From Pseudomonadota bacterium (GTDB lineage Bacteria > Pseudomonadota > Gammaproteobacteria > Burkholderiales > Burkholderiaceae_C): a DNA stretch of 64,000 bases. The stretch is taken from positions 23,170-87,169 of the forward strand of contig JAIUOM010000001.1 in assembly GCA_020161215.1 (NCBI GenBank), in the 5' to 3' direction. Below are positions 19,934 through 60,488 of the stretch, piece after piece. Position 1 is the stretch's first letter. Each line of letters starts with the position of its first letter. The position numbers were made by a program, and so were the translations under genes. The notes beneath the pieces were generated by a model. The model was not told where the DNA came from. It did no database searches and worked only from the letters and a program-made list of their open reading frames with translations.

Positions 19934-20557
19934 TCAGTGCAGGTGGCGCGGCCGGCGGCCCCCGCCGTGGCCCGGCGTGCCGCCACCGGGACTGCGCGGC
20001 TTGCCCAGCTCCAGCGAGCTGGTGAGCGCATTGAAGCGGTTGTCGAACAGCTTGTCGATCTCGGCGACCACGCCACCCAGTTCGGCACCGTCGAAATGCC
20101 GCTCCATCAGGCTGACCACGTCCTCGACCAGCAGATCGCGCTGCGCCTGCATGATGGCCTCGGGCGTAGGGCCCACGAACAGCAGGACAAAGTCGTCGCG
20201 CGCATCGCGACCGTCTTCTTCGTCGTCCTCGTCGTAGTCGACGTCGTAGAAGGTGACCTCGATCTGCGAGCCCTCGGCGGAAAGCTCGTTCAGGTTCATG
20301 CACAGATCGTCGAGTTGATGACGGAAGTCGTCCTCGCCGCGCAAGGTCCAGCACATCTGCAGCAGGTGCTGGTGCGGGTCGAAGCGGATACCGGGCTCGT
20401 CCTCGTACAGGCTGGCCGCACCATCGGCCAGCGAGCGTCCACCGGCGTACTTCCACAGGGGTTTGAGGGCTTCCTGCAAGGCATCGAAGCGCACGTCGCC
20501 GCGCAGCTTGACATCGCCATGCACGTGAATCTCGAAAGGTGCGTCGTCGTGATTCAT
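19934..20557 (-). CDS. Hypothetical acidic protein
   Basis: 207-aa ORF with an Asp/Glu-rich centre (YDVDYDEDDEEDGRD). It starts 23 nt downstream of the tRNA-Leu 3' end on the same strand. Confidence 0.5.
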   Translation of the reverse strand: MNHDDAPFEIHVHGDVKLRGDVRFDALQEALKPLWKYAGGRSLADGAASLYEDEPGIRFDPHQHLLQMCWTLRGEDDFRHQLDDLCMNLNELSAEGSQIEVTFYDVDYDEDDEEDGRDARDDFVLLFVGPTPEAIMQAQRDLLVEDVVSLMERHFDGAELGGVVAEIDKLFDNRFNALTSSLELGKPRSPGGGTPGHGGGRRPRHLH

Positions 20558-20580
20558 GGCGTCTTCAACATCCTCAAAGC

Positions 20581-20644
20581 TGGTACCCCGGGCCGGGATC
20601 GAACCGGCACGCCGCCTTTCGGCAAGCGGCGGATTTTAAGTCCG
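20581..20644 (-). pseudogene. 3' part of the split host tRNA-Leu(UAA) gene (anticodon loop to CCA)
   Basis: The reverse complement reads CGGACTTAAAATCCGCCGCTTGCCGAAAGGCGGCGTGCCGGTTCGATCCCGGCCCGGGGTACCA: anticodon-stem 3' strand, long variable arm, T arm GCCGG-TTCGATC-CCGGC, acceptor 3' strand, CCA. The matching 5' half lies at 59359-59397. Confidence 0.8.
20634..20644. repeat. attL core, 11-bp direct repeat TTTTAAGTCCG
   Basis: Identical 11-mer at 59359-59369; it corresponds to the anticodon loop plus part of the stem of tRNA-Leu(UAA). Confidence 0.8.
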
Positions 20645-20661
20645 ATACCGGGGCTCACTAC

Positions 20662-20750
20662 TGGTGCCACCGAGCGGACTCGAACCGCTAAGTCATTGAT
20701 TTGACGAGGGATTTTAAGTCCCCTGTGTTTACCGATTTCACCACGGTGGC
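20662..20750 (-). tRNA. Phage-borne tRNA-Leu (anticodon UAA), 89 nt including CCA
   Basis: The reverse complement GCCACCG-TG-GTGAAATCGGTAAACAC-A-GGGGA-CTTAAAA-TCCCT-C-GTCAAATCAATGAC-TT-AGCGG-TTCGAGT-CCGCT-CGGTGGC-A-CCA folds as a class II cloverleaf. The AT-rich variable arm is unlike the host copy. Confidence 0.8.
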
Positions 20751-20765
20751 GGCAAAGACAGCCAT

Positions 20766-20800
20766 TGTGACACGTCCCTGCCACAGGACTTGCCACAAGG
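20766..20800. promoter_or_regulatory. TGTGACAC-N4-CTGCCACA motif (copy A) plus an extra TGCCACAAG
   Basis: tgtgacacgtccctgccacaggacttgccacaagg. Related copies at 54240-54263 and 59175-59195. Confidence 0.4.
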
Positions 20801-20818
20801 TTGCCGCTCACCAGCCTG

Positions 20819-20848
20819 AATAAAAACGACGCTTATTGGACAACCCGG
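20819..20848 (+). promoter_or_regulatory. Phage RNAP promoter candidate, copy 1 (29/30 match)
   Basis: aataaaaacgacGcttattggacaacccgg. The other three copies are identical 30-mers. It has an ACGAC core and an AT-rich block before GG, resembling T7-class promoters. Confidence 0.6.
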
Positions 20849-20960
20849 CTTCGGGGGTCCCGTAACGACACGTTCATGAGTTTTTCAGGCGACTTCAGGC
20901 CACCCAGGCTGAAGGTGAAGTGAAAAAGTTGATGAAGGCTATCCCCGTCAACCCCCCTAC

Positions 20961-20992
20961 AGGTCCCAGTAGGTCCCCAGTAGGTCAACTAT
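20961..20992 (+). repeat. Three tandem 10-11 bp units (AGGTCCCAGT / AGGTCCCCAGT / AGGTCAACTAT) in the RNAP gene leader
   Basis: Read directly: aggtcccagtaggtccccagtaggtcaactat, followed by aggagtg (the RBS). Confidence 0.6.
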
Positions 20993-21007
20993 AGGAGTGT
21001 CCACATA

Positions 21008-23584
21008 GTGTCGGTTTTATCCCTTAAGGGCGGTGACGCCTTTTCTATTTACTTTGATTCTCTCGATCCCGAGATGGTCTCGGAACAGCTACGGATCGAA
21101 CAGGAAATCATGGAACGCGGGATAGATTCGTATTACCGCAACCTGGAGTCAGCTCGCCAGCGTGAGCAGGAGAACAGCACGAGCTTCGGCACCGCCTTGA
21201 TGAAGCGGTTCAATGCTGTGGTCGCGGATCGCATCGAAGAATTCCTCCGCTCCTTGGATACGGGCAAGCCCGGCAAGCGACACGCCTCCGCAAAGCACTT
21301 GCGGAAGATCAACCCCCGCAAGGCGGCATACCTCGCTCTCCTGGGATGCGTGGCTGGCATCCGATCAACTCGCCACCTCACTTCGGTGGCCTCTGTGGTT
21401 GGCCGAATGGTGGACGACGAGATGCGCCTGGAGGAGCTGAGAGAAAAGGACGCCAAGGAGGCGGGCAAGCTCGTGAAAAACGCCACGGAGCGGGTGTCGC
21501 ACCAGTTCCGCCGCACTTTTGTTCACCGCCACCTCAAGGGCGTCGTTGACGAGCTGCCGGCGCATGAGCGGGTCCACATCGGACTAGCCCTGATCGACTT
21601 CGTTATCGAGACCACGGGGCTGTTCCACGTTCAAGCCGCACGGGGCCGGAAAGGTAAGACGTACAACGAGTTGCTGCCGACACAAGCCGCCCTGGATTGG
21701 ATCGACCGACGCAACGCGGCAACCGAGGCCCTGCGCCCACAGCACGAGCCGATGGTGGTCCCGCCTATGCCTTGGTCGCCGGAGGAGTTCGGGGGCTATT
21801 TAACCTACGCCAAGCGGCCCTACCCGCTCGTGAAAACCCGCAACCAGGGGTTCCTCGCCGAGCTGCCCAACTACGAGATGCCTGTGATCTACGAGGCCAT
21901 CAACAACGTCCAGAACACGGGGTGGCAAGTGAACAACCGCGTCCTGGAAGTGATGAATAGCATGTGGGATGAGGACATTGCCGAGGCGGGTCTGCCCCAC
22001 CGTGGTGGCGTTCCTATCCCCCCAAAGCCGGCTGACATCGCAAGCAACGAGGAGTCCCGCAGGAGCTGGCGCCGCCGCGCTGCCGTCGCCTGGGCCGCAA
22101 ACAAGAGCCTGAGCGGCGAGCGCATCGCCACCAACTTGATGCTGGGCACCGCCAACAGGTTCGCCAAGTACCCGGCAATCTACTTCCCCTACCAGTACGA
22201 CTACCGTGGGCGCCTCTACTCTGTCCCCTCTGGACTATCCCCGCAAGGCGCTGACCCCGCCAAGGGCCTCCTCAGGTTCGCCGAGGGGAAGCCTTTGGGG
22301 GAGCGCGGGGCCTTCTGGCTGGCCTACCAAGGGGCCAACCTCGCCGGCAACGACAAGGTGACCTTCGAGGAGCGTGTGCAATGGGTCTGGGATAACGATG
22401 AGGCCATCCGGGCATGCGCCGCTGATCCGATGAACAACCGGGGCTGGTGCCGAGCCATTGGCGAAATCGCTATCGACTCCCCCTGGCAGTTCCTGGCGTT
22501 CTGTTTCGAGTGGAACGATTACCGGGCGGACCCGGACGGCTTCGTGTCGCACCTGTCGGTGGCAATGGACGGCTCGTGTTCGGGAATCCAACACTTCAGC
22601 GCCATGCTGCGAGACCCCAGCGGCGCCCGCGCTGTGAACCTCACCCCTGAGGAGCGGCCCCAGGACGTGTACCGGATCGTGGCGGACGCCGTGAGTGCCG
22701 AGCTGCGCCGAGACCTGGAACATGGCACCGAGGACAGTCTAAGCCACACCAAGGATGGCGCGGCTGTGGTGATTCAGGGCACCAAGACCCTCGCCGCTCA
22801 GTGGCTGGAGTTCGGGGTGACACGCAAGGTGACCAAGCGCCCGGTGATGACGCTCGCCTACGGGTCGAAAGAGTACGGGTTCACCGACCAGCTCCTTGAC
22901 GACATCCTGGACCCGGCCCTGGCCCACGCCACAGGCCCTGATGGGAGCATCGACAAGGACCTCTACCCGTTCACCGGGGACAAGAACGCGACTGCCCGCT
23001 ACCTCGCCAAGAAAATCTGGGCTTCGGTCACGGAGACCCTGGTGGCGGCAACCTCAGCGATGAAGTGGCTCCAGTCGGTGGCTAACCGGGTCGCCAAGGA
23101 GAACATCCCGGCCCGCTGGGAGAACGCCGTGGGCTTCCCAGTGATGCAGGCGTACCCGGACATGCGTACACGCCGAGTAACGACCAGCCTGCACGGTGGT
23201 CTCACCCTGCCGCTGCTGGAACCGAGCAAGGACGGCGGGCTGAACGTGCGGAAGATGGAGGACGGCATTGCGCCGAACTTCGTCCACTCCTGCGATGCCG
23301 CTCACCTGACCCTCACTGTGGTCCGGGGCGAGGAGTCCGGGGTTACCTCGTTCGCCGTGGTCCATGACTCGTTCGGGACCCACGCCTGCGACATGGACGT
23401 GTATTTCAAGGCGGTCCGCGAGGCGTTCGTGGAAATCTACGGGGGGATAAACGTGCTTGGCAATTTCCAGGACTCAATGGCTGAGTTGGTCGCCCCGGAG
23501 GTGGCGGCGAAGTTCCCGCCGATACCGCCCGTTGGCTCTCTGGACCTAGAGGCCGTCAAGGCGAGCAGGTATTGCTTTGCCTGA
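21008..23584 (+). CDS. T7-type single-subunit DNA-directed RNA polymerase
   Basis: DGSCSGIQHFSAMLRD, TKRPVMTLAYGSKEYGF, GIAPNFVHSCDAAHL, FAVVHDSFGTH and the C-terminal YCFA align with T7 RNAP motifs. GTG start with GGAG 12 nt upstream. Confidence 0.9.
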   Translation: MSVLSLKGGDAFSIYFDSLDPEMVSEQLRIEQEIMERGIDSYYRNLESARQREQENSTSFGTALMKRFNAVVADRIEEFLRSLDTGKPGKRHASAKHLRKINPRKAAYLALLGCVAGIRSTRHLTSVASVVGRMVDDEMRLEELREKDAKEAGKLVKNATERVSHQFRRTFVHRHLKGVVDELPAHERVHIGLALIDFVIETTGLFHVQAARGRKGKTYNELLPTQAALDWIDRRNAATEALRPQHEPMVVPPMPWSPEEFGGYLTYAKRPYPLVKTRNQGFLAELPNYEMPVIYEAINNVQNTGWQVNNRVLEVMNSMWDEDIAEAGLPHRGGVPIPPKPADIASNEESRRSWRRRAAVAWAANKSLSGERIATNLMLGTANRFAKYPAIYFPYQYDYRGRLYSVPSGLSPQGADPAKGLLRFAEGKPLGERGAFWLAYQGANLAGNDKVTFEERVQWVWDNDEAIRACAADPMNNRGWCRAIGEIAIDSPWQFLAFCFEWNDYRADPDGFVSHLSVAMDGSCSGIQHFSAMLRDPSGARAVNLTPEERPQDVYRIVADAVSAELRRDLEHGTEDSLSHTKDGAAVVIQGTKTLAAQWLEFGVTRKVTKRPVMTLAYGSKEYGFTDQLLDDILDPALAHATGPDGSIDKDLYPFTGDKNATARYLAKKIWASVTETLVAATSAMKWLQSVANRVAKENIPARWENAVGFPVMQAYPDMRTRRVTTSLHGGLTLPLLEPSKDGGLNVRKMEDGIAPNFVHSCDAAHLTLTVVRGEESGVTSFAVVHDSFGTHACDMDVYFKAVREAFVEIYGGINVLGNFQDSMAELVAPEVAAKFPPIPPVGSLDLEAVKASRYCFA
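21061..21074. promoter_or_regulatory. Palindromic operator-type site TCTCG-ATCC-CGAGA inside the 5' end of the RNAP gene
   Basis: Perfect 5-bp arms; belongs to the TCTCG-N4-CGAGA family (see findings). Confidence 0.45.
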
Positions 23585-23588
23585 ACAC

Positions 23589-23602
23589 TCTCGCAATCGT
23601 GA
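23589..23602. promoter_or_regulatory. Operator-like site TCTCG-CAAT-CGTGA (1 arm mismatch)
   Basis: Lies just after the RNAP stop and before promoter copy 2. Confidence 0.3.
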
Positions 23603-23624
23603 CCATCCCTACTCCGGGATTTTC

Positions 23625-23654
23625 AATAAAAACGACCCTTATTGGACAACCCGG
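23625..23654 (+). promoter_or_regulatory. Phage RNAP promoter candidate, copy 2
   Basis: aataaaaacgacccttattggacaacccgg, identical to copies 3 and 4. Confidence 0.6.
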
Positions 23655-23696
23655 CGTCTTCGTCAGGTGTCCTCCTCACCCAACCAAAGGATCACC

Positions 23697-23891
23697 ATGG
23701 CATTCGACTACTCCGTCCCTTCCATTGATACACCCCCGATGGGCGCTGACCACCCGTCCGCGTTCGCCATCCAGACCCGCCGCGCCATCACGCTGGCGAG
23801 CGAGGGGCGTCCCATCCCTGTGGACCTGCGGACCGAACTGATGGAAGCCGGCATCGACGCGGATGCCATCGAGAACACTTTCGGCGCCTGA
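23697..23891 (+). CDS. Hypothetical small acidic protein (64 aa)
   Basis: ATG at 23697 after AAAGGA; first ORF after promoter copy 2. Confidence 0.5.
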   Translation: MAFDYSVPSIDTPPMGADHPSAFAIQTRRAITLASEGRPIPVDLRTELMEAGIDADAIENTFGA

Positions 23892-23904
23892 AGGAGGACC
23901 GCCG

Positions 23905-24204
23905 ATGCAACTTCTGTCGTTCGATCCCAAAGATATCCCGGAAGCCTGCCGACAAGCCGCCGAGAGCACCCTCCCTGGTGCCTGCTTCACCGCAGCGTTC
24001 ACGTTCAGCCCCCCCGAGTGGGCGTCCGTAATGAGGGGCTTAGAGATGCGCGAGCAAGGCGGGGCCATCGGAAAGCCCACGGCCAAACACCGTGTCCACC
24101 GCACGGTCATCGGTAGCCACGGATACCAGGAAACCCTAGTTGCCCGCCACACGCTGTACGGCATCCCGGTGTTCATCACCCCTGATCCCATCACCTGGGT
24201 GTAA
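23905..24204 (+). CDS. Hypothetical protein (99 aa)
   Basis: AAGGAGGA RBS before the ATG at 23905. Confidence 0.5.
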   Translation: MQLLSFDPKDIPEACRQAAESTLPGACFTAAFTFSPPEWASVMRGLEMREQGGAIGKPTAKHRVHRTVIGSHGYQETLVARHTLYGIPVFITPDPITWV

Positions 24205-24227
24205 CGACCCAGCACACAAACCTGAAG

Positions 24228-24251
24228 GCACCTACGAGGTGCTTTTCTTTT
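24228..24251 (+). terminator. Hairpin-TTTTCTTTT element
   Basis: gcacct-acg-aggtgc followed by ttttctttt. Confidence 0.45.
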
Positions 24252-24267
24252 CCCCTGAAAGAGCCCT

Positions 24268-51742: not shown

Positions 51743-53476
51743 ATGAAGTTAAAGCCTCCAGGGACGCTCCCACCCCTGAACCGTCTGGCTGACGCAATGC
51801 ACCCAGCACGGCAGGACTTCAGGAAATTCGTTTTCCTGCTGTGGAAGCACCTGAACCTACCCGCCCCCACTGATGTCCAGTACGACATCGCCCGTTACCT
51901 CCAGACCGGCCCGCGTCGGTGCGTTATCGAAGCCTTCCGTGGCGTCGGTAAGTCTTGGCTAACTGCTGGCTTTGTGGTCTGGCTGCTGTGGAACGACCCG
52001 CAGCAAAAAATCCTGGTGGTGTCCGCCTCGAAAGACCGGGCCGACCAATTCTCCAGCTTCGTCAAGCGGATCATCGCGGAGATGCCGCTGGTGCAACACC
52101 TGCAACCGAAACGCGGCCAGCGCGACTCCATGATCGCCTTTGACGTGGGGCCGTCCCGCGCAGACCACTCCCCCTCCGTCAAATCAGTCGGCGTGACCGG
52201 CCAACTAACCGGGTCCCGTGCCGACGTAATCATCCCCGATGACGTGGAGGTCCCCAACAACTCCATGACGCAGACCCAGCGGGACCAGCTCGCTGAGCGT
52301 GTGAAGGAATTCGACGCCATCCTGAAGCCGGGTGGCCGGGTCATCTATCTGGGAACCCCCCAGTGCGAGGCCAGCCTCTACATCGAGTTGCCCGAACGCG
52401 GCTACCAAGTCCGTGTGTGGCCCGCGCTGTACCCCACGCTGAAGCAGATCGACGGCTACAAGGGCACCCTGGCCCCGTTCATCACTCGGCGATTGGAGAA
52501 AGACCTATCGCTCCAAGGCACGACGACTGACCCCAAGCGGTTCTCCGACGATGACCTCATGGAACGCCGGGTGTCCTACGGCAAAGCCGGCTTCGCGCTC
52601 CAGTTCATGCTGGACACCACGCTGGCCGACCTGGACAAGCACCCGTTGAAACTCGCCGACCTCATCACGATGAGCCTGCCACCGACGATGGCGCCAATCA
52701 AGATCGCCTGGGCGGGTGCCTCCGAACAGGCCCTGGCCGAGCTGCCTGCTGTCGGCCTCACAGGGGACAGGTACAACCGCCCCATGTGGTACGCCCCTGA
52801 GCTGACTGAGTACGCCGGGGCTGTCATGACCATCGACAACGCAGATGGCACCCACGATGAGACCGCCTTTGTCGTGGTCAAGCAGCTCCACGGGAACTTG
52901 TTCCTGACCCTCTCCGACTCCGTGATGGGACCGAGTGATGCCAGCATGGGCAAGATCGCCCAGGCCGCTAAGAGCCAAGGTGTCAATCTGATCCGGGTGG
53001 AATCCAATGCGCAGGGGAACACCTTTGCCGAGCTGTTGCGCAAAGCGCTCAAGGCCGCTGGCTATCCGTGCACCGTGGAAACCAAGCGCTCCCACGGCCA
53101 GAAAGAGCTGCGGATCATCAGCACACTTGAGCCGGTACTCGGGGGCCACCGTCTAGTGGTGGACGCAAGGGTCATTGAGCAGGACTATGCCTGCACCCGC
53201 GACGAGCCGCGCAAGAGCCTGTTCTACCAACTGACCCGGATCACACGGGACCGTGGCTCGCTGGGCTTTGACGACCGCATAGACGCCCTGGCCCAAGCTG
53301 TGAGCTACTGGTCTGAGGCACTGAGCCGTGACCAAGAGAAAGCCGCTGAGGCCCACAAGGACCGGGCCATCCACGAGACCTTGAAGGACTTCATTCGGAA
53401 CGCCCTGGGCAAAGGCAAGCGACGTGGCCGCGCAGCATCCGCTTTCAGCACGAACAGGGGGCTCTCAGGCCGTTAA
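51743..53476 (+). CDS. Terminase large subunit (gp19-like)
   Basis: 577 aa; CVIEAFRGVGKSW Walker A-like, VIIPDDVE Walker B-like; T7 gp19 size and position. Confidence 0.85.
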   Translation: MKLKPPGTLPPLNRLADAMHPARQDFRKFVFLLWKHLNLPAPTDVQYDIARYLQTGPRRCVIEAFRGVGKSWLTAGFVVWLLWNDPQQKILVVSASKDRADQFSSFVKRIIAEMPLVQHLQPKRGQRDSMIAFDVGPSRADHSPSVKSVGVTGQLTGSRADVIIPDDVEVPNNSMTQTQRDQLAERVKEFDAILKPGGRVIYLGTPQCEASLYIELPERGYQVRVWPALYPTLKQIDGYKGTLAPFITRRLEKDLSLQGTTTDPKRFSDDDLMERRVSYGKAGFALQFMLDTTLADLDKHPLKLADLITMSLPPTMAPIKIAWAGASEQALAELPAVGLTGDRYNRPMWYAPELTEYAGAVMTIDNADGTHDETAFVVVKQLHGNLFLTLSDSVMGPSDASMGKIAQAAKSQGVNLIRVESNAQGNTFAELLRKALKAAGYPCTVETKRSHGQKELRIISTLEPVLGGHRLVVDARVIEQDYACTRDEPRKSLFYQLTRITRDRGSLGFDDRIDALAQAVSYWSEALSRDQEKAAEAHKDRAIHETLKDFIRNALGKGKRRGRAASAFSTNRGLSGR

Positions 53477-53604
53477 AAGGGCTCAGGGGTTACTACCCCC
53501 CACCCAACGGCCGGAAGCCGCTAGAGGCCCTAAAACACCCCCGAGGAACCCCGTTCCCACCACCCCCTACGCCAGCGTACACAGTGGAGACAGTCTCCTC
53601 CCCC

Positions 53605-53655
53605 AGGCCACCTCAGGACCACCCTTCCAGGGCTCCGCAGGTGGCCTATTTTTTC
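53605..53655 (+). terminator. Long hairpin plus T-run after the terminase gene
   Basis: 9-bp stem aggccacct/aggtggcct with a 25-nt loop, then attttttc. Confidence 0.45.
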
Positions 53656-53687
53656 ATAGCAAGGAACCCGCATGAAACCTCACGATT

Positions 53688-53717
53688 AATAAAAACGACC
53701 CTTATTGGACAACCCGG
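53688..53717 (+). promoter_or_regulatory. Phage RNAP promoter candidate, copy 4 (phiOR-like position, facing the non-coding terminus region)
   Basis: Identical 30-mer. Confidence 0.6.
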
Positions 53718-53973
53718 TGTGAATCGGCCTTGTCTGGGGAGCGTCCCTACTCATGGGTAGGACGGCGGCCTTTGGCAACTTTGCCGCTTGGGGACTAGTG
53801 AAGCCAACCAGGAGTCCAGATGGACTCTGTGGAATGTGGGTTTATGTTCTCTCTGCTCCTACCTCTTGTCTATCTCTGGGACCCCGTAAAGGCCCTCTAG
53901 AGGTTCAATCTACGGGGGGTAGGGGGGGAGTTGAAAACAGCTCGCTCCCAGAGAGTCCTACCTCAACTACCTC

Positions 53974-53997
53974 CCTATTGATTACCTAAAGGGAACC
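53974..53997 (+). repeat. CCTATTGATT-ACCTAAAGGG element (copy 1 of a pair exactly 300 bp apart) with tandem CCTAAAGG
   Basis: cctattgattacctaaagggaacctaaagg; partner cctattgattcttaagggga at 54274. Confidence 0.5.
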
Positions 53998-54239
53998 TAA
54001 AGGCGAACCCAGCGGGGACCTGGCGGGATGCCTCCAGGGACCAATAGAGTGCTTAGCGGGGTACAGCCATCATGGTCTACCCAAGAGCGAAGCGACTGAG
54101 GGGAGCCCCCAAATAATTAGCCGCAAAAGTCCGAGGACACCCTCGATACAGGGGCGGCGCGAATTTCCCCCCATGGCCCCCTCGAAGCCCCCCCCCTACC
54201 TCCCCGGTGGAGAACCTCCATGCACCCCCTCCGGGCGCC

Positions 54240-54263
54240 TGTGACACCGTGACACCTGCCACA
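54240..54263. promoter_or_regulatory. TGTGACAC...CTGCCACA motif (copy B)
   Basis: tgtgacaccgtgacacctgccaca. Confidence 0.35.
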
Positions 54264-54273
54264 AGCGAGCTAA

Positions 54274-54295
54274 CCTATTGATTCTTAAGGGGACC
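54274..54295 (+). repeat. CCTATTGATT-CTTAAGGGGA element (copy 2)
   Basis: Shares CCTATTGATT and a CT(A/T)AAGGG-like tail with the element at 53974. Confidence 0.5.
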
Positions 54296-54449
54296 GCAGC
54301 GGATGGGGCATCCACAGGGGGGCGGATTCGGGGCCTTGAGAGTCACTGGGTGTGGTTCTTTATAGCTATTTGATATGATGAACCAGTTGTTAATAGCCAA
54401 TAGCTATATCACTGCATCTTTGGCTATCTGTAGTTGTTATTCCTTTTAG

Positions 54450-54473
54450 TTATAAAGACAGAATTCTTTATAA
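54450..54473. repeat. Palindrome TTATAAAG-N8-CTTTATAA in an AT-rich block
   Basis: Read directly. Confidence 0.5.
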
Positions 54474-54480
54474 CCCCATG

Positions 54481-54648
54481 CCACCTCTAGGCCACCTCCA
54501 GGCACTGCACCGAGCCACCCCAGGCACTGCACCGAGCCACCTCCAGGCCACCTCCAGGCCACCTCCAGGCACCCCCAGGCCACCTCCAGGCCACCTCCAG
54601 GCACTGCACCTCTAGGCCACCTCCAGGCACTACACCGGGCCACCCAAG
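54481..54648 (+). repeat. Degenerate tandem array: ~11 copies of the 11-bp unit GCCACCTCCAG interspersed with 4 copies of GCACTGCACCGA-like units
   Basis: Read directly. Flanked by AT-rich DNA at 54355-54476 and 54652-54745. Confidence 0.8.
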
Positions 54649-54669
54649 AGGTTTAGCTTGAAACTATCG

Positions 54670-54685
54670 AATTGAAAATTCAATT
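54670..54685. repeat. Palindrome AATTGAA-AA-TTCAATT
   Basis: Read directly; upstream of the early promoter. Confidence 0.5.
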
Positions 54686-54697
54686 AGTTAATTCCGA

Positions 54698-54727
54698 TTG
54701 ACTTAATACTCTCGATATCGGGATACT
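54698..54727 (+). promoter_or_regulatory. Sigma70-type early promoter TTGACT-N18-GATACT
   Basis: The hexamers equal those I recall for T7 A1 (TTGACT/GATACT). The spacer holds operator TCTCGATATCGGGA. 47 nt upstream of the first early ORF. Confidence 0.55.
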
Positions 54728-54740
54728 CTCGACATCGGTT
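54710..54740. promoter_or_regulatory. Operator pair O1: TCTCGATATCGGGA + TCTCGACATCGGTT (17-bp register)
   Basis: The first 14-mer is identical at 55336 and 59218; near-palindrome of TCTCGATATCGAGA. Confidence 0.5.
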
Positions 54741-54774
54741 TGATTCACAGACCGTAACCACCCAGGAGAAAACC

Positions 54775-55332
54775 TTGATTAAGACCCCCGTCAACGAATA
54801 CACGATGAACAAAGCAGGCGCCGAGCTGGGCCGCTGGATGATCCAGAGAGCTGCCCGTTTGGCCCGTGATGTTGGATTCAGCTACGAGCCGGCTGGTGAT
54901 GCCCCGGAGACCTACGAAGCTGTCCTGGCTGCTGTACGCCGTTCGCAGTGTGAGCGGGTTCCCTTCCCGGTTTGGGCAGGCGGATCGGACGCCACCATCT
55001 ATGGCAGTGCGGAGGCCAATTACGCTTTCCGCTACTGGCATGACATGGCCCATATCGCCTCTACGGGTGACTTCACAGTCGCCGGGGAACTGGCTGCTGT
55101 CCGTATGCAGCTCACCGAACTTGCTCGCACTTTCGGTACAGACTCAATCGAATACGCCCTGTTCGTTGCTGACACTCTCGGGCAGGTTTGGTTCCACGAG
55201 CGCACCGAGGGCGGATTCGTCCAGGATCAAAAAAGCTGGGTGTTTGCTGTCGTCCAGGCTCACGCGGACACCCACCGAGGAGACCTCCAGGGACTTGAGG
55301 CTCATTTCCTAGAGGGCCTTCGTTCGTCCTAA
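54775..55332 (+). CDS. Hypothetical early protein (185 aa)
   Basis: TTG start 7 nt after AGGAG; first ORF downstream of the early promoter. Confidence 0.5.
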   Translation: MIKTPVNEYTMNKAGAELGRWMIQRAARLARDVGFSYEPAGDAPETYEAVLAAVRRSQCERVPFPVWAGGSDATIYGSAEANYAFRYWHDMAHIASTGDFTVAGELAAVRMQLTELARTFGTDSIEYALFVADTLGQVWFHERTEGGFVQDQKSWVFAVVQAHADTHRGDLQGLEAHFLEGLRSS

Positions 55333-55335
55333 CCC

Positions 55336-55369
55336 TCTCGATATCGGGACTATCTCGGGTTTGCCGAGA
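55336..55369. promoter_or_regulatory. Operator pair O2: TCTCGATATCGGGA + TCTCGG-GTTTG-CCGAGA
   Basis: Same 17-bp register as O1. Confidence 0.5.
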
Positions 55370-55446
55370 GGTCCCCCCAGAGGGTCCGAGCCGGGTTCTC
55401 TGGGGGGATTCGCCCCTACCGATCAAGCACCAACGGAGATTTGAAG

Positions 55447-55539
55447 ATGAGTGACCTCTACGACCTCTTTCACGACTGCCCCGAGCTGGCAGAGGCTGTG
55501 AACGAAGCCCAGCACGCCGATGGCGATACAGGGGAGTGA
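55447..55539 (+). CDS. Possible 30-aa acidic peptide
   Basis: MSDLYDLFHDCPELAEAVNEAQHADGDTGE; GGAG RBS; below the ORF-track threshold. Confidence 0.25.
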   Translation: MSDLYDLFHDCPELAEAVNEAQHADGDTGE

Positions 55540-55541
55540 CC

Positions 55542-55967
55542 ATGGCGGAACTAGTCACCTTTGACCCCACGAGCCTAGGCTCTCATCGCGCCCGGAACAT
55601 GAGCCCCGAAAAAGAGCTGCTGCACGCCTATTCGGCTGTCGTGGTCGATGCTGAAGGAGGCTTGTCTAACCCCGTTACCGCCCGCGTTTACGGATCGCGG
55701 CATGGCGATGGCGCCGGGCGCCTGTGGGCATCCGTGTGGACGGCCCCGGAAAGCCTTAAGGGGGGCGGCGCCAGCGGCTGGGGGTACGTCACCGGCTGCG
55801 GATACCACAAGCCCAGCGCGGCGATTGCTGTGGCGCTGCGTGCGGCTGGCTGGCTGTTGCCTTTCGAGGTGTCGGGCTGCGGCCATGGAACCACCATCCG
55901 CGCCCTTGAGGCTGTCGCTATGGCATGCGTCCCAGGCGCCGCACGGGGACAGGTCATCACGCACTGA
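55542..55967 (+). CDS. Hypothetical early protein (141 aa)
   Basis: ATG at 55542 (the ORF track uses the GTG at 55536). Two GCG(Y/H) motifs. Confidence 0.5.
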   Translation: MAELVTFDPTSLGSHRARNMSPEKELLHAYSAVVVDAEGGLSNPVTARVYGSRHGDGAGRLWASVWTAPESLKGGGASGWGYVTGCGYHKPSAAIAVALRAAGWLLPFEVSGCGHGTTIRALEAVAMACVPGAARGQVITH

Positions 55968-56069
55968 GCGCCAGAACTGCGCCTGAAGGGCACCCGGAGG
56001 GGCCGCTTAGAGTGGCCGTGGGGGGTGCCCTTTGGGGGCCGCTTTGGCCCGTACAAAGGAGAAAAATCC

Positions 56070-56681
56070 ATGCCTAGCATCGACGTGCCCGCAGCACATT
56101 TAAAAGCCTTGGCGCGGTTCACCGTCCCCAAGGACATCCGCAGCTCTTATCGGGGGGTATGGGTGGAGCGCTCGCGGGTCTACCGTAGCGGGTTCACCCT
56201 GGCCGCATCCAACGGGTTCGCCCTGGCCGTCCTGCACTACGCGGAGGGCGGGCGCGAGCTGGGGCCAACACCCTACATGATCGACCCAAAACCGCCGAAG
56301 CCGGCGCGGCGAGAGGTTCAGCCAAGGTTCACCCAAAAGCTGGTCCGGGTGCGTTGGTCCGAGCCGGCCAATGCCCAAGGCGGCTTACCTTGGCGGGATG
56401 TCTTTCCGGCACAGATCACCGGGGAGCCGGCGCAATACGCGCCCCACAGCTTGAACTTGTTCGGCCGGTTGGCTGCTGCGGTTGCAAATCAGCGGCTGGG
56501 CAACCCGGCTATTCCGTGCATCCACTACAACGGCCCCAATCACCCCGGAATCGTCACTTTCCCGGCGCTGGACAGCGATGAAGCCGCCCCCGAGTTCGTC
56601 GGTGTTATCTCCCCGGTCCATAGCTGGCCCGCAGAGGGGACCCATGCAGGCCCGTACATGCCTGCCGTTTGGGCCGCTTGA
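56070..56681 (+). CDS. Hypothetical early protein (203 aa)
   Basis: AAGGAG RBS before the ATG at 56070. The N-terminal LKALARFTVPKD...GFTLAASNGFALAV faintly recalls a beta-clamp domain; unverified. Confidence 0.5.
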   Translation: MPSIDVPAAHLKALARFTVPKDIRSSYRGVWVERSRVYRSGFTLAASNGFALAVLHYAEGGRELGPTPYMIDPKPPKPARREVQPRFTQKLVRVRWSEPANAQGGLPWRDVFPAQITGEPAQYAPHSLNLFGRLAAAVANQRLGNPAIPCIHYNGPNHPGIVTFPALDSDEAAPEFVGVISPVHSWPAEGTHAGPYMPAVWAA

Positions 56682-56715
56682 CGTGGCCGCAGAAAACTCC
56701 TTTCAGAGAATCAAT

Positions 56716-56940
56716 ATGACAAACGAAATCCGCCCGATCTTGAACATCACCCGCCGCGCTTGTCCCGCCCAGAAGTTCGCCAAATACGCCCGCGTGGTGT
56801 TCCCCGAGGGGGTCACCCGCAGCGCTGTCGAGGCCACCATTGGGCGCTTCCCGGCGTCCGAGGGGTTCCGCGTGAGCCTGCGCCGCTCTGGCCCCGTGGG
56901 CTTTTCGCTCCCCCTTGAGCTGGCCGAGCTGGGGGCATGA
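56716..56940 (+). CDS. Hypothetical protein (74 aa)
   Basis: Internal ATG of ORF 56482-56940; abuts the next ORF (ATGA overlap). Confidence 0.4.
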   Translation: MTNEIRPILNITRRACPAQKFAKYARVVFPEGVTRSAVEATIGRFPASEGFRVSLRRSGPVGFSLPLELAELGA

Positions 56941-57245
56941 CCATGGCACGCATCGACATAAACCACATCCTGCTCTTGCGCCCGGTCGGTAGTCGGTACG
57001 GGGCACCGCTGGGCCGTAGGAACGTCCTGGGCGAGCCGTCCCCGCTGTATCTCCAGCGTGTCCGGTTTGTGGATGGCGACTACGCCCCCGATGGGACCTA
57101 CTGGGGCGGTGGAGGTGCCCCCCTGTGGTGCGCGTTCACGCCGGACCTATCCACTGAGGTCTATGTGCGAGCGCGGAGCCGCGCGGAGGCGTTTGAGGCC
57201 GTCAAGGCTGAGTGCCCCGAAGCCACTCTTTTCCGTGCGCCCTAA
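56937..57245 (+). CDS. Hypothetical protein (102 aa)
   Basis: ORF track; translationally coupled to the previous ORF. Confidence 0.45.
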   Translation: MTMARIDINHILLLRPVGSRYGAPLGRRNVLGEPSPLYLQRVRFVDGDYAPDGTYWGGGGAPLWCAFTPDLSTEVYVRARSRAEAFEAVKAECPEATLFRAP

Positions 57246-57282
57246 CACTTCCGACATCAATTCTTTCCCGATACAGAAACGC

Positions 57283-57310
57283 TCTCGATATGTCACACCT
57301 TCTCGATGCC
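57283..57310. promoter_or_regulatory. Two TCTCGAT half-sites (O3)
   Basis: tctcgatatgtcacaccttctcgatgcc. Confidence 0.3.
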
Positions 57311-57377
57311 GTTGCTTACTCTGGTGGCCGATTCTGCTGGGCTTTCCCCGGCATAAAAGTAACCAAAAAACACTCAA

Positions 57378-57390
57378 ATTACCGGGTAAT
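57378..57390. promoter_or_regulatory. Palindrome ATTACC-G-GGTAAT
   Basis: In the 450-bp lower-GC non-coding region upstream of the MarR-like gene. Confidence 0.4.
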
Positions 57391-57488
57391 TCCCGTTGTT
57401 TTAACGCGACTTAACCATGGAAACAGGGGCTTGCGCAACAGGTCCGGTGTAACATCCTCTCCCGCTGCCGGGACAATCATTGAATCGA

Positions 57489-57532
57489 GTTACTGCCGGT
57501 AACGGTAGTTATGATCCTTCTTTATCCATAAC
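57489..57532. promoter_or_regulatory. Palindromes GTTAC-TGCCG-GTAAC and GTTATG-N13-CATAAC
   Basis: Read directly; share the TTAC..GTAA theme with 57378. Confidence 0.4.
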
Positions 57533-57697
57533 ATAGGATCGTCGTTTTGATGCACGTCAAAGTAGCTGGGCACGAAGTAATTCTCACGACCGCCCCCTTA
57601 GCGCCGCCGTATGCAGCGTTCGACCGAACGTACTGCGGTGGATTTGAGGTCTTCTTAGGGCCTCTCCATCTAATCTACAGCCGACCAAGGAAACGCT

Positions 57698-58084
57698 GTG
57701 AACGAAAAACTAACAATCGAGGAGCGTATTGCAACGAACCGCCTGTATGCGGTGTTGGAGGAACTGGGGGGCGTACATCCGAATATGACGGTAGCGCAGC
57801 TCAAGACTCTCGTTGCAGCAGCGTTGAATCCAGGCAGCACCGTGACCGAGCTTGGAAAGCTGACTGGAACCACCCTCTCGTCCGCTTCGCGGCACGTCGA
57901 TGCACTTGGCCCGCTCCAGGCGACCCGCAAGATCGGTATGGATTTGGTGACATCTGACTATGACGCCCTAAACAGGCGCCGGAAAGTGGTCCAGCTCACC
58001 GCAGACGGCTACCGCCTCCTACGCGCGGTGCTGATGCGGATGGCCGGTCCTGCTGGGATCACTGTGACACGTCCTAAGGAGTAA
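57698..58084 (+). CDS. MarR-like winged-helix transcriptional regulator
   Basis: MTVAQLKTLVAAALNPGSTVTELGKLTGTTLSSASRHVDAL...RRKVVQLTADGYRLL. GTG start after AAGGAAA; 4 nt upstream of the integrase gene. Confidence 0.6.
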   Translation: MNEKLTIEERIATNRLYAVLEELGGVHPNMTVAQLKTLVAAALNPGSTVTELGKLTGTTLSSASRHVDALGPLQATRKIGMDLVTSDYDALNRRRKVVQLTADGYRLLRAVLMRMAGPAGITVTRPKE

Positions 58085-58088
58085 TTGA

Positions 58089-59312
58089 ATGCCTATCTAT
58101 GAACGAGGAGGCGCCTTTCAGGTGTCCGTGGGGTCAGGGGCTGCGCGAAAGCGCGAGACGACCTCCACCAGAGCGGAAGCCGAGGCCCTTGAACTGGCCC
58201 TGCTGGCCGAGTTGCGCGATGAAAAGCTGCGACGTGTAGCGGCCCGCGCCCAGGGTGACCCAGCAAAGACTGTGGGGCACGCTGTCGAGGCCGCTATTCG
58301 GGACCACTGGCTGGACACCAAGAGCCGACGCACTACGGAGCTGAATGTGCGCGACATCGCCGCCATCCTCGGATGGGACCGCCCGCTGGTGAGCCTCATG
58401 ACGAGTGACGTGGACGACGCCGTTGCGGAGCTGATTGAGCGCGGAATCACCGGGTCCACGATCAACCGCAAGCTGTCCGCCCTGAGCGTGTCCCTGCGCA
58501 ACGCCCGCCGCAAAGGGTGGGTGAAGGACCTACCGGACATCCTCAGGAGGAAAGAATCGGAATGTCGCATCGGCTGGTACACGGAGGAGACCGAGAAGCT
58601 GATGCTGGACACATGCGAGCGGCTGGGTCTGAATGCCCTGGCGAACTTCATCACGGTTGGCATCGACACTGGGTTCCGCCGCACGGAGATGCTGCGGCTG
58701 GTCCCTGCCGACTTAGCTGGCGGTCTGGTCATCCTGCATGCTGGGGAAACCAAGAGCGGTAAGGCCCGCGCTGTGCCCGCTACGGAGTCCGTGGTTGCCG
58801 TCTTTGAAGCTGCCAAGGGGGTCGGTAGCCCCCGCGTGTTTCAGAGCCTCACAGACTCAATCCTGAGGTCGCAATGGTCCCAGCTCCGGGAGGCCCTACA
58901 TCGAGAGCAAGACCCGTTCTTCATCGTGCACACCCTGCGTCATACCACAGCCACCCGGCTGGCCTTCGCTGGGGCCACCGCACCGCAGATCATGGCGTTC
59001 ATGGGGCACTCAAGCCTTCAGGTCTCGCAGAAGTACATCCACCTTGCTGCGGAACACGTCAAAGGGATTGAAGTGCTGTTGACCAGGAAGGCCCCAAGGG
59101 TGGTTTCAGCCCCCCTGCCGACACCTCTGCCGGTTCCCGCTCAACCCGCTGCTGGGGACCCTACTGAGGCACCTTGTGACACCAAACCTGCCACAAACCC
59201 CCTTTTTCGCCAATCATTCTCGATATCGGGACCATCTCAATATCGAGTTACAAATCAACAGTTTAGTGGGTTTTCACTGGGCAACTTAGGAGGGCCGTGG
59301 CAGAAAACATAA
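58089..59312 (+). CDS. Tyrosine recombinase/integrase
   Basis: RRTEMLRL (Arg I), HTLRHTTATRL (HxxR), MGHSSLQVSQKYIH (His...Tyr). About 85 non-conserved-looking C-terminal residues overlap regulatory motifs. Confidence 0.85.
   Translation: MPIYERGGAFQVSVGSGAARKRETTSTRAEAEALELALLAELRDEKLRRVAARAQGDPAKTVGHAVEAAIRDHWLDTKSRRTTELNVRDIAAILGWDRPLVSLMTSDVDDAVAELIERGITGSTINRKLSALSVSLRNARRKGWVKDLPDILRRKESECRIGWYTEETEKLMLDTCERLGLNALANFITVGIDTGFRRTEMLRLVPADLAGGLVILHAGETKSGKARAVPATESVVAVFEAAKGVGSPRVFQSLTDSILRSQWSQLREALHREQDPFFIVHTLRHTTATRLAFAGATAPQIMAFMGHSSLQVSQKYIHLAAEHVKGIEVLLTRKAPRVVSAPLPTPLPVPAQPAAGDPTEAPCDTKPATNPLFRQSFSISGPSQYRVTNQQFSGFSLGNLGGPWQKT
59175..59195. promoter_or_regulatory. TGTGACAC-N5-CTGCCACA motif (copy C)
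   Basis: tgtgacaccaaacctgccaca, 164 bp from the attR core. Confidence 0.4.
59218..59248. promoter_or_regulatory. Operator pair O4: TCTCGATATCGGGA + TCTCAATATCGAGT
   Basis: Same 14-mer and 17-bp register as O1/O2; inside the integrase 3' end. Confidence 0.5.
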
Positions 59313-59358
59313 TCGGATTCGAGAGCTTCGCGTCAACGGCAGGGACTTTAGCAGTGTC

Positions 59359-59369
59359 TTTTAAGTCCG
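59359..59369. repeat. attR core, 11-bp direct repeat TTTTAAGTCCG
   Basis: Identical to 20634-20644. Confidence 0.8.
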
Positions 59370-59397
59370 CTGTGTCTACCTGTTTCACCACCGGGGC
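59359..59397 (-). pseudogene. 5' part of the split host tRNA-Leu(UAA) gene (acceptor strand, D arm, anticodon stem 5' strand and loop)
   Basis: The reverse complement is GCCCCGG-TG-GTGAAACAGGTAGACAC-A-GCGGA-CTTAAAA. The sequence then continues into non-tRNA phage DNA. Confidence 0.8.
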
Positions 59398-59493
59398 GAT
59401 TGTCCGGTCCCGATCATCCACGGCGGGCACGCTGGCCGAAACACTATACCCCCGCAGCCCCGTCGGCGCGAGTCGAACCCGCGGGTACCCATC

Positions 59494-59532
59494 GATAAAA
59501 GAAAAAACCACCCGTGCTTGTGGCACGCGTGG
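59494..59532 (-). terminator. Rho-independent terminator downstream of tRNA-Lys
   Basis: 10-bp stem (one mismatch) ccacgcgtgc/gcacgggtgg followed by TTTTTTCTTTT on the minus strand. Confidence 0.6.
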
Positions 59533-59544
59533 CTTTCGTATTTT

Positions 59545-59620
59545 TGGTGGGTCGTGCGTGACTCGAACACGCGACCAACGGATTAAAAGTCCGCTGCTCT
59601 ACCAACTGAGCTAACGACCC
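59545..59620 (-). tRNA. tRNA-Lys (anticodon UUU)
   Basis: The reverse complement GGGTCGTTAGCTCAGTTGGTAGAGCAGCGGACTTTTAATCCGTTGGTCGCGTGTTCGAGTCACGCACGACCCACCA folds as a canonical 76-nt cloverleaf. Confidence 0.9.
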
Positions 59621-59657
59621 CCACACACCATTCGCTATGAGCCTCTTGTGAAGCGCC

Positions 59658-60488
59658 TTAGCGATCTGGCAAGCCTTGCATTATAGCGTGTTTTTTTGCG
59701 TGTCCTGAAGCGATCTGATTCAGCACCCACCCCGCCGCGCAAAAACCAAAACTGGCGGTCACGGCCACGCTCGATCCGTAGCCGTGACAGTTGAGTGTAC
59801 CGTCCCTCTCGGCCGGACTCTCGCAGGCCTCCGGCATGGCCACCGCCTCGCGGCTGAACACGACGGGCACACCGATGCGCTTGCCCTGTGTCGGCGCGCC
59901 ATGCTGGCGCCGCAGACGGTAGCGCAACTGGGCCATCAGCGGGTCGTGCGTCACCTCGGCCAAATCGGCGATCTCCACGCGCTCGGGGTGGCGCTTGCCA
60001 CCGGCCGCCCCCACCGCCATGAAGCACGCGCCGCTGTGCAACGCCCAGGCCGCCATGGCGACCTTGGCGGCCATCTGGTCACAGGCGTCGATCACGGCAT
60101 GCACCGGCGCCGGCAGCAGCGCCGGCCAGTTGCCGGGCTCGACGAATTCCTCGACCTCATGCACCTGGCAACCCGGGTGGATCTGCAAGATGCGCTCGCG
60201 CATCGCCGTCACCTTGGCCTGCCCCAGGGTGCCGCTCAGGGCGTGCACCTGACGGTTGACGTTCGATTCAGCCACCTGGTCCAGGTCGATCAGGGTGAGG
60301 GCCGCCACGCCGCTGCGCGCCAAGGCCTCGGCCACCCAGGAGCCCACGCCGCCGATGCCGACCACGGCCACGTGGGCGCCCCGGATGCGCCGCGCGCCCT
60401 CCGCGCCGTACAGGCGCGCCAGGCCGCCAAAACGGCGCTCCAGATCGGCGGCGTCGCCCTCCACGACCGAAGACCAGGGCGCGCTCAC
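59658..60488 (-). CDS. tcdA: tRNA threonylcarbamoyladenosine dehydratase (ThiF/MoeB-type)
   Basis: RFGGLARLYGAEGARRIRGAHVAVVGIGGVGSWVAEALARSGVAALTLIDLDQVAESNVNRQVHAL parallels E. coli TcdA. The GTG at 60488 overlaps the upstream stop (GTGA); the ORF-track extension to 60815 is rejected. Confidence 0.8.
   Translation of the reverse strand: MSAPWSSVVEGDAADLERRFGGLARLYGAEGARRIRGAHVAVVGIGGVGSWVAEALARSGVAALTLIDLDQVAESNVNRQVHALSGTLGQAKVTAMRERILQIHPGCQVHEVEEFVEPGNWPALLPAPVHAVIDACDQMAAKVAMAAWALHSGACFMAVGAAGGKRHPERVEIADLAEVTHDPLMAQLRYRLRRQHGAPTQGKRIGVPVVFSREAVAMPEACESPAERDGTLNCHGYGSSVAVTASFGFCAAGWVLNQIASGHAKKHAIMQGLPDR

Follow-up and report, generated by a model that had tools for sequence, protein, structure and literature searches.

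Integration separates the RNA polymerase gene of a temperate T7-like phage from its predicted early promoter

T7-like phages are textbook lytic viruses that are favored for therapy and as expression tools, and integrase-bearing relatives of them are common. In T7 itself, the host RNA polymerase (RNAP) starts near the left end of the genome and reads through the early genes into gene 1, with a terminator just beyond; T7 never integrates and has no integrase gene (int), phage attachment site (attP), regulator, or promoter of its own type ahead of gene 1. Stable T7-like lysogens have, to our knowledge, rarely been documented, and the question is how a self-amplifying polymerase program is kept silent. 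A naturally stable lysogen found in many samples is present in the window analyzed here, a stretch of 64,000 nucleotides from a member of the Burkholderiaceae_C (positions 23,170 to 87,169 of contig JAIUOM010000001.1, GenBank assembly GCA_020161215.1). The element is a temperate T7-like phage with a MarR-int-attP-RNAP module, in which the attachment sites and the predicted operators and promoters are clearly readable.

The module has counterparts in several described phages. In each of 12 HTVC019P-type pelagiphages reported by Zhao et al., attP lies in the noncoding region between int and the RNAP gene, and it targets a tRNA gene (10.1101/410191); the window phage shares both features. An earlier reading of the window, made from its sequence alone (here called the sequence-only reading), was not aware of the uncoupling mechanism having been demonstrated for T7-like phages; that the layout is new is not supported, given the pelagiphage publication. 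In cyanophages, Sullivan et al. and Shitrit et al. found attP to follow int directly (PMC1079782, PMC8776855); the second of these papers does not relate the site to the RNAP gene, and the parallel holds only if the gene order matches. Putzeys et al. mapped the transcriptome of LUZ100 and found that a weak sigma70 promoter drives a MarR-int operon, that int is followed by a terminator, and that a phage promoter (phi1) lies directly upstream of the RNAP gene (PMC10134795). In their model, a positive feedback loop is seeded by rare read-through and RNAP expression is repressed by MarR, a form of control proposed for both LUZ100 and Pasto; MarR sites on either side of the RNAP promoter are credited there to Boeckman et al. 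2022 (PMC10134795). Our literature search found no statement that integration uncouples RNAP from the early promoters and thereby aids lysogeny, although an earlier proposal is possible, most likely in Boeckman et al. 2022 (Virology 568:86). The layout is already known, the uncoupling mechanism apparently not demonstrated.

The boundaries of the prophage could be placed to the base. It spans 38,725 bp (20645-59369, counted with one copy of the core), has a G+C content of about 60 to 62% compared with 65 to 70% in the flanks, and interrupts a minus-strand host gene for tRNA-Leu(UAA) within the anticodon loop. Both ends carry the 11-bp core TTTTAAGTCCG (Table 1), which corresponds, within the tRNA, to the anticodon loop plus four stem bases; the rejoined tRNA halves give a gene of 93 nt that folds into a cloverleaf. 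A pattern scan of metagenome contigs with the reconstructed tRNA junction recovered two empty attB sites (L035 and L036) holding exactly this intact tRNA-Leu, as called by ARAGORN, beside a DUF6806 homologue that in L036 is 84% identical at the DNA level to the left flank of the window. The prophage boundaries, and hence the position of attP, are established by these sites, and positions 59175 to 59369 are the P arm and core of the attachment site. The sequence-only reading had joined 59358 to 20645 in the circular map. The gene order that it derived is right, but that join drops the core; the correct joins are 59369 to 20645 or, equally, 59358 to 20634.

In the joined genome, the promoter at 54698 is followed by four or five early open reading frames (ORFs), the MarR-like gene, int, attP, an antisense tRNA-Leu, a phage promoter, and the RNAP gene, and the early unit is closed beyond the RNAP gene by a terminator resembling T7 TE. 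The same order, which had been proposed from the window alone, can be read directly in the free relative YIMV22061. The distance from attP to the RNAP start is 363 bp, in agreement with the earlier estimate of about 360 bp. All promoters, terminators, and operators described here are consensus or enrichment predictions. The 54698 promoter is the sole plus-strand sigma70-like site scoring at least 9/12 within 53400-59700. No canonical hairpin plus U-run terminator was found on the plus strand from 54698 to the core or from 20645 to 24225, and none in the joined 420 nt between the int stop and the RNAP start. The first such terminator, at 24225, is preceded by two small genes 3' of the RNAP gene and matches the position of T7 TE; together, the 54698 promoter and this terminator are the counterparts of the ends of the T7 early unit. 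With this order, the RNAP gene would be promoter-distal within an early unit that the host RNAP transcribes, like gene 1 of T7.

As the sequence-only reading had claimed, attP bisects this otherwise continuous unit. Once integrated, the RNAP gene lies at the far left of the prophage and has upstream of it only minus-strand host genes and tRNAs and its own phage-type promoter. On the RNAP side of the crossover, no plus-strand sigma70-like site was found even at 7/12 within 20560-21010, a range that includes the 20750-21008 interval in which an active host promoter would have spoken against uncoupling. On the int side there are, besides 54698, weak 8/12 plus-strand sites at 59188-59217 and 59286-59313, so that every recognizable entry point for host RNAP is on the int side. 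In silico, integration cuts the predicted early unit between int and gene 1 and leaves the RNAP gene with no recognizable host promoter upstream. We regard the structural statements on the locus as close to certain.

The RNAP is encoded on the same contig as T7-type SSB, endonuclease I, amidase, and T7 terminase genes, which follow in that order. Its GTG start at 21008 is backed by alignment of the N terminus; an alternative start at the ATG at 21074, which would place a hairpin at 21026 and a palindrome at 21061 upstream of the gene, was rejected because conserved residues precede that ATG. The hairpin and T-run at 21026-21052 was also considered as an attenuator, but it is weak (-9 kcal/mol) and not conserved in YIMV22061. 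Four near-identical copies of the motif CGACCCTTATTGGACAAC, at 20827, 23633, 34240, and 53696, define a predicted phage promoter family (0.03 copies expected); all are intergenic. The copy ahead of the RNAP gene is similar to the T3-like promoter upstream of RNAP in YIMV22061 and occupies the place of phi1 in LUZ100.

The gene directly upstream of int encodes a winged-helix regulator, a candidate repressor, that has a match to PHROG 9665 and a weak match to Pfam MarR_2 (3.5e-4; 21 bits against a curated cutoff of 27), so that strict membership in the MarR family is not established. It is 46% identical to the product of the gene upstream of int in YIMV22061. A 14-bp palindrome, TCTCGATATCGGGA, has three exact copies in the prophage, each with a degenerate second copy 17 bp downstream. 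The relaxed form TCYCG-N4-CGRGA occurs at seven prophage sites compared with 0.3 expected, an enrichment of about 20-fold, and 0 of 200 shuffles reached seven. Besides the early region, these sites include RNAP codons 18-22 (TCTCGATCCCGAGA), with a near match (TCTCGCAATCGTGA) between the RNAP stop and the next phage promoter. YIMV22061 has five perfect TCTCG-N4-CGAGA sites (0.08 expected): two are in its early region, one (TCTCGATGACGAGA) is at the homologous RNAP codons, and one (TCTCGCTTCCGAGA) is at the equivalent place just after the RNAP gene and before its phage promoter. The occurrence of the same half-sites at the same positions in two phages with regulators of this similarity points to a repressor acting on the early promoters, on the RNAP gene, and on the first middle promoter, and it provides good indirect evidence for direct repression of the RNAP gene. 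The P-arm operator (59218-59248), being located between int and attP, could also block read-through.

YIMV22061, a Limnohabitans phage, is the nearest sequenced phage, with 52% identity in RNAP and 49% in int. Its genome has the order regulator, int, gap, antisense tRNA-Leu, T3-like promoter, RNAP. The topology was seen in free relatives from five genera, in phages of Limnohabitans, Ralstonia, Bordetella, Rhizobium, and Pelagibacter. Early genes, int, a gap of 190 to 430 bp, and RNAP follow each other directly in Bordetella BB8, Rhizobium RHEph01, and Pelagibacter HTVC105P, the last two of which have an annotated regulator directly upstream of int; an HNH gene is located between int and RNAP in Ralstonia vRsoP-WF2 and DU_RP_I. 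Overall, the order of early genes, regulator, int, gap, and RNAP is the same in the window phage as in Pasto, LUZ100, the HTVC019P-type phages, the Gyeongsanvirus phages of Ralstonia and Bordetella, and YIMV22061, and int and the regulator of the window phage are homologous to those of its temperate T7-like relatives.

An RNAP-alignment scan of one genome per species identified 23 chromosomal T7-like loci in very different bacteria, with RNAPs 29 to 40% identical. The ORF nearest upstream of the RNAP gene was judged by Pfam; of 20 upstream ORFs, eight had no match and were uninformative. In 10 loci, from Alpha- and Gammaproteobacteria, Mucispirillum, Nitrospira, and Phycisphaerae, a host-type gene was directly upstream: an ABC transporter, porin, GH46, DUF4405, peptidase M17, prephenate dehydratase, MoCF, histidine kinase, NhaB, or Lgt gene. 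An eleventh locus (L006, 8092-9744, from a Desulfovibrionaceae metagenome-assembled genome) has a tyrosine integrase with DUF6538 and Phage_integrase domains directly upstream of RNAP and host-type genes before it, and the crossover site in this lineage seems to lie upstream of int rather than between int and RNAP. A tblastn search for int upstream of RNAP was insensitive and missed this integrase. A Reyranella prophage (L004) mirrors the attL of the window, with a tRNA-Leu 3' half, the core TTTTAAGTCC, a complete antisense tRNA-Leu(UAA), CTGTCAC repeats, and RNAP. In most loci that can be judged, the RNAP gene is at the very edge of the prophage. A comparison of attP positions across integrase-bearing T7-like genomes had been proposed in the sequence-only reading; the topology does recur, and in the pelagiphages it was already on record (10.1101/410191).

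The occurrence of the phage in metagenomes bears on its stability. All 19 contigs that encode the exact left-flank protein are lysogens, and every contig with the exact int or flank protein shows the integrated form, from at least 10 distinct samples or runs among the places listed. Metagenomes that contain the lysogen include ERZ27233584 and ERZ28614637. The attL and attR junctions are identical in the lysogen contigs L027 to L034 and L037 to L042 (ENA, JGI, Logan), and the first prophage bases at 20645-20661 are identical across eight independent contigs. No free attP junction was found among contigs encoding the exact int, several of which stop just after the attR core. In this respect the window phage, stably integrated in many samples, differs from LUZ100 and the cyanophages, for which stable lysogens were not obtained.

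We consider it somewhat probable that lysogeny in this phage relies on a repressor backed by a topological fail-safe, with the topology contributing measurably. The MarR-like repressor would set and hold lysogeny as the main layer, binding TCYCG-N4-CGRGA over the early promoters, the P arm, and the first RNAP codons and ahead of the first downstream phage promoter. The topological cut, as suggested by the anatomy of the locus, would be a second layer that removes the host read-through seed of the self-amplifying RNAP loop; in the integrated state, the seeding trickle of host transcription into the RNAP gene would be exactly zero. Induction would proceed by derepression, production of Int, and excision, which would rebuild the early unit and only then allow RNAP synthesis and lytic growth, so that RNAP would not be made until Int had excised the genome.

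Several observations weigh against a measurable role for the topology. Temperate phages usually have int and attP side by side, and int has to be an early gene; the topology could be a by-product of these two features. The promoter, terminator, and operator assignments come from consensus and enrichment calls rather than from expression, and we infer rather than observe that the palindrome belongs to the MarR-like protein. Strong terminators between int and attP had been named as something that would make read-through irrelevant in the excised form. None is predicted in the window; in relatives, however, terminators are predicted after int in YIMV22061 (-15.4 kcal/mol) and RHEph01 (-15.3 kcal/mol), and LUZ100 has a measured one, T4 (PMC10134795). 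This feature is variable, and in those relatives little read-through into RNAP may occur even from the free genome, with the convergent tRNA gene perhaps a further obstacle. Cyanophages with int and attP also integrate without forming stable lysogens (PMC8776855). Where read-through amounts to only a trickle, as in some lineages, a seed-plus-feedback design is a better fit than a simple operon.

Three other explanations were considered. The MarR-like protein, acting on the early promoters and the RNAP gene, may be both necessary and sufficient, in which case the attP position is a by-product and the cutoff of RNAP adds nothing measurable. Published models invoke MarR and not topology, the enriched operators on the RNAP gene itself would keep RNAP controlled even when integrated, and the terminators after int in YIMV22061, RHEph01, and LUZ100 suggest that read-through is already low (PMC10134795). 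A repressor acting by itself leaves unexplained why the topology is kept over lineages as distant as those of the chromosomal loci, 10 of which have host genes as the immediate upstream neighbors of RNAP, why the early region is still separated from RNAP in L006, where a different integrase is upstream, and why sigma70-like sites are all on the int side of the crossover. On balance, we think this explanation possible but rather unlikely. The sequence-only reading had gone to the other extreme, suggesting that recombination topology alone could serve as a lysis/lysogeny lock, with gene 1 untranscribable once integrated and no repressor needed. The continuity of the early unit across attP and the lack of a predicted host promoter upstream of gene 1 in the prophage agree with such a lock, but the 54698 promoter would go on driving the early genes and int, and the prophage would excise continually. 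Moreover, the phage has a regulator and at least five positioned operators, and the palindrome is strongly enriched on the early promoter and the RNAP gene at positions kept in YIMV22061. The cyanophages argue in the same direction, if indirectly, as the relation of their attP to RNAP is not given (PMC8776855). A lock of this kind is very improbable.

It is also conceivable, at a low probability, that the element is a fixed, defective, or domesticated prophage whose silence needs no mechanism and whose layout is a relic. All contigs with the exact proteins show the integrated form and no free attP junction was recovered, as would be expected of such an element, yet short-read assembly seldom captures an excised form that is in the minority. 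Full-length ORFs for RNAP, int, and terminase, identical between samples, argue against decay, as do the four phage promoters, the operators, and the two att cores, all of them intact. Returning to the combined reading of repressor and fail-safe, the uncoupling idea is reasonable and testable as a supplement to the repressor system, not as a stand-alone lock.

A broader version of the combined reading, which we hold only tentatively and think doubtful, is that excision-gated RNAP expression is a general device for silencing the self-amplifying T7 program and that the position of the int-attP cassette has been selected for across the T7-like lineages sampled. It would span SAR11 phages and phages of Betaproteobacteria, Mucispirillum, and Planctomycetes, with recombination cutting the only host-RNAP route to the phage RNAP gene and forcing excision before late transcription; if true, it would amount to a recombination-state switch acting on a transcription unit. 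For the window phage, the layout predicts that RNAP expression needs excision. A contribution of topology would account for the conserved cassette position and suggest a simple design rule for T7 expression circuits gated by a recombinase; without one, the locus would still serve well as a model of the MarR-type repressor network in temperate Autographiviridae.

Two known systems provide partial parallels. In the mycobacteriophages BPs and Brujita, Broussard et al. 2013 reportedly found attP inside the repressor gene, with integration removing a degradation tag. There, as in the window phage, the attP position gives the integrated and free states different regulatory wiring, but in BPs and Brujita a protein is altered, whereas here a transcription unit is cut, and the core is 1.27 kb downstream of the regulator ORF and 47 bp past the int stop. 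In the int/sib system of phage lambda, integration separates int from a cis element downstream of attP, an RNase III-sensitive hairpin that destabilizes int mRNA in the free form only. Expression in lambda and in the window phage would depend on the recombination state, although the separated element here is the key lytic gene itself. Beyond attP, the window phage has an antisense tRNA, which is structured.

Table 1. Features of the prophage, its attachment sites, and its flanks (positions in the window unless a locus is named)
Feature	Position	Strand	Details
Host MFS transporter gene, left flank	18530-19840	-	Pfam
Host DUF6806 gene, left flank	19934-20557	-	Pfam
Split host tRNA-Leu(UAA), 3' part	20581-20644	-	Ends in attL core copy
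attL copy of 11-bp core	20634-20644		TTTTAAGTCCG
First prophage bases, P' side of attP	20645-20661		GCCCCGG on minus strand, tRNA acceptor-stem remnant
Complete phage-borne tRNA-Leu(UAA)	20662-20750	-	ARAGORN; antisense to int and RNAP
P'-arm palindromes, putative Int arm-type sites	20766-20797		TGTGACAC-N5-TGCCACA and further TGCCACAA
Predicted phage-RNAP-type promoter phi1	20819-20852	+	Upstream of RNAP gene; copy of repeated 31-bp motif
T7-type single-subunit RNAP gene	21008-23584	+	858 amino acids; GTG start, AGGAG ribosome binding site; Pfam RNA_pol 1.6e-107, RPOL_N 5e-20
Operator-like palindrome in RNAP codons 18-22	21061-21074		TCTCGATCCCGAGA
Operator-like near match	23589-23602		TCTCGCAATCGTGA; 5 bp after RNAP stop, 22 bp before phi2
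Predicted phage promoter phi2	23625-23658		After RNAP gene
Predicted terminator, T7 TE analogue	24225-24253	+	First canonical hairpin plus U-run after early promoter in excised order
Terminator after terminase gene, then rightmost phage promoter copy	53607-53721	+	Promoter copy at 53688-53721
Array of 11-bp repeats just upstream of early promoter	54480-54650		CCACCTCCAGG type
Predicted early sigma70-type promoter	54698-54740	+	TTGACT-18-GATACT
Exact palindrome in spacer of early promoter	54710-54723		TCTCGATATCGGGA; half-conserved second copy 54727-54740
Exact palindrome between early genes 1 and 2	55336-55349		TCTCGATATCGGGA
MarR-like winged-helix regulator, candidate repressor	57698-58084	+	PHROG 9665 "transcriptional regulator" 4.7e-16
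Tyrosine integrase int	58089-59312	+	407 amino acids; Pfam Phage_integrase 1.7e-15 (residues 166-323), PHROG 1
P-arm palindrome, putative Int arm-type site	59175-59195		TGTGACAC-N6-TGCCACA
Exact palindrome in P arm, 128 bp before core	59218-59231		TCTCGATATCGGGA; degenerate second copy 59235-59248
attR copy of 11-bp core	59359-59369		TTTTAAGTCCG
Split host tRNA-Leu(UAA), 5' part	59370-59398	-	Joins with 20581-20644
tRNA-Lys, right flank	59545-59620	-	ThiF gene also in right flank
Regions with split-tRNA and phage-tRNA layout	window 20581-20750, 59359-59398; L004 9716-9871; L003 10673-10830

Integration of the phage destroys the host tRNA-Leu(UAA): no more than the 11-bp core is shared, and a tRNA is rebuilt at neither junction. 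The complete tRNA-Leu(UAA) carried by the phage 17 bp from the core presumably replaces the disrupted gene, and a phage tRNA-Leu is found at the same place in the free phage YIMV22061 and in the distant Reyranella prophage. The use of a complete phage tRNA as a stand-in for a host gene that is not rebuilt distinguishes the window phage from known temperate T7-like phages. The tRNA-Leu 3' end is followed, 24 bp downstream on the same strand, by the start of the host DUF6806 gene (20557-20750); after integration, the phage tRNA gene is upstream of DUF6806, and the two may be cotranscribed from a phage-borne promoter.

The integrase is 48.6% identical to that of YIMV22061, with conservation stopping near residue 336. 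Beyond this point, a proline-rich tail of about 70 codons crosses the P-arm palindrome and operator, whereas in YIMV22061 int ends short of the equivalent sites; the tail may have no function as a protein. The palindromes of both arms are likely Int arm-type sites. Related motifs (TGTG[AG]CAC or CTGTCAC) flank attP or the int-RNAP gap in YIMV22061, BB8, RHEph01, and L004, and they are read as arm-type sites because the phages that carry them share homologous integrases. The P'-arm palindromes at 20766-20797 overlap a possible minus-strand tRNA promoter. A third TGTGACAC...TGCCACA palindrome at 54240-54263 is distant from attP; it lies in a long noncoding stretch after terminase, some 450 bp ahead of the early promoter, and is unexplained if such palindromes are Int arm sites. 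Two 9/12 sigma70-like sites on the minus strand (59213-59240 and 59309-59336) point leftward, antisense to the 3' end of int, and could produce an int antisense RNA; the operator at 59218 is in the spacer of one of them, mirroring the early promoter. Transcription from the host tRNA-Leu promoter, to the right of 59398, would likewise enter the antisense strand of int in a lysogen.

The array of CCACCTCCAGG-type repeats ahead of the early promoter presumably marks the neighborhood of the virion ends, by analogy with T7 and with vRsoP-WF2, which has a mapped terminal repeat at its left end, and it is possibly a counterpart of the short repeat arrays beside the T7 terminal repeats. A related copy of these repeats is found at 53597-53623. 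A noncoding gap of 450 bp, richer in A+T, precedes the MarR-like gene (57245-57698); a palindrome variant, TCCCGCTGCCGGGA, occurs in it at 57460, as does a hairpin whose tail is rich in T, at 57484-57523. No convincing sigma70 promoter for a separate MarR-int operon was found within this stretch, the best candidates scoring 8/12; the gap may divide host-takeover genes from a regulator-int operon as in LUZ100. Among the chromosomal loci, the RNAP matches are truncated in L021 (8249-9862) and L015 (10001-11947), with an int homologue and tRNA genes a few kilobases downstream (14827-15759 and 17212-17724, respectively), and both look like decayed or deleted remnants of T7-like prophages.

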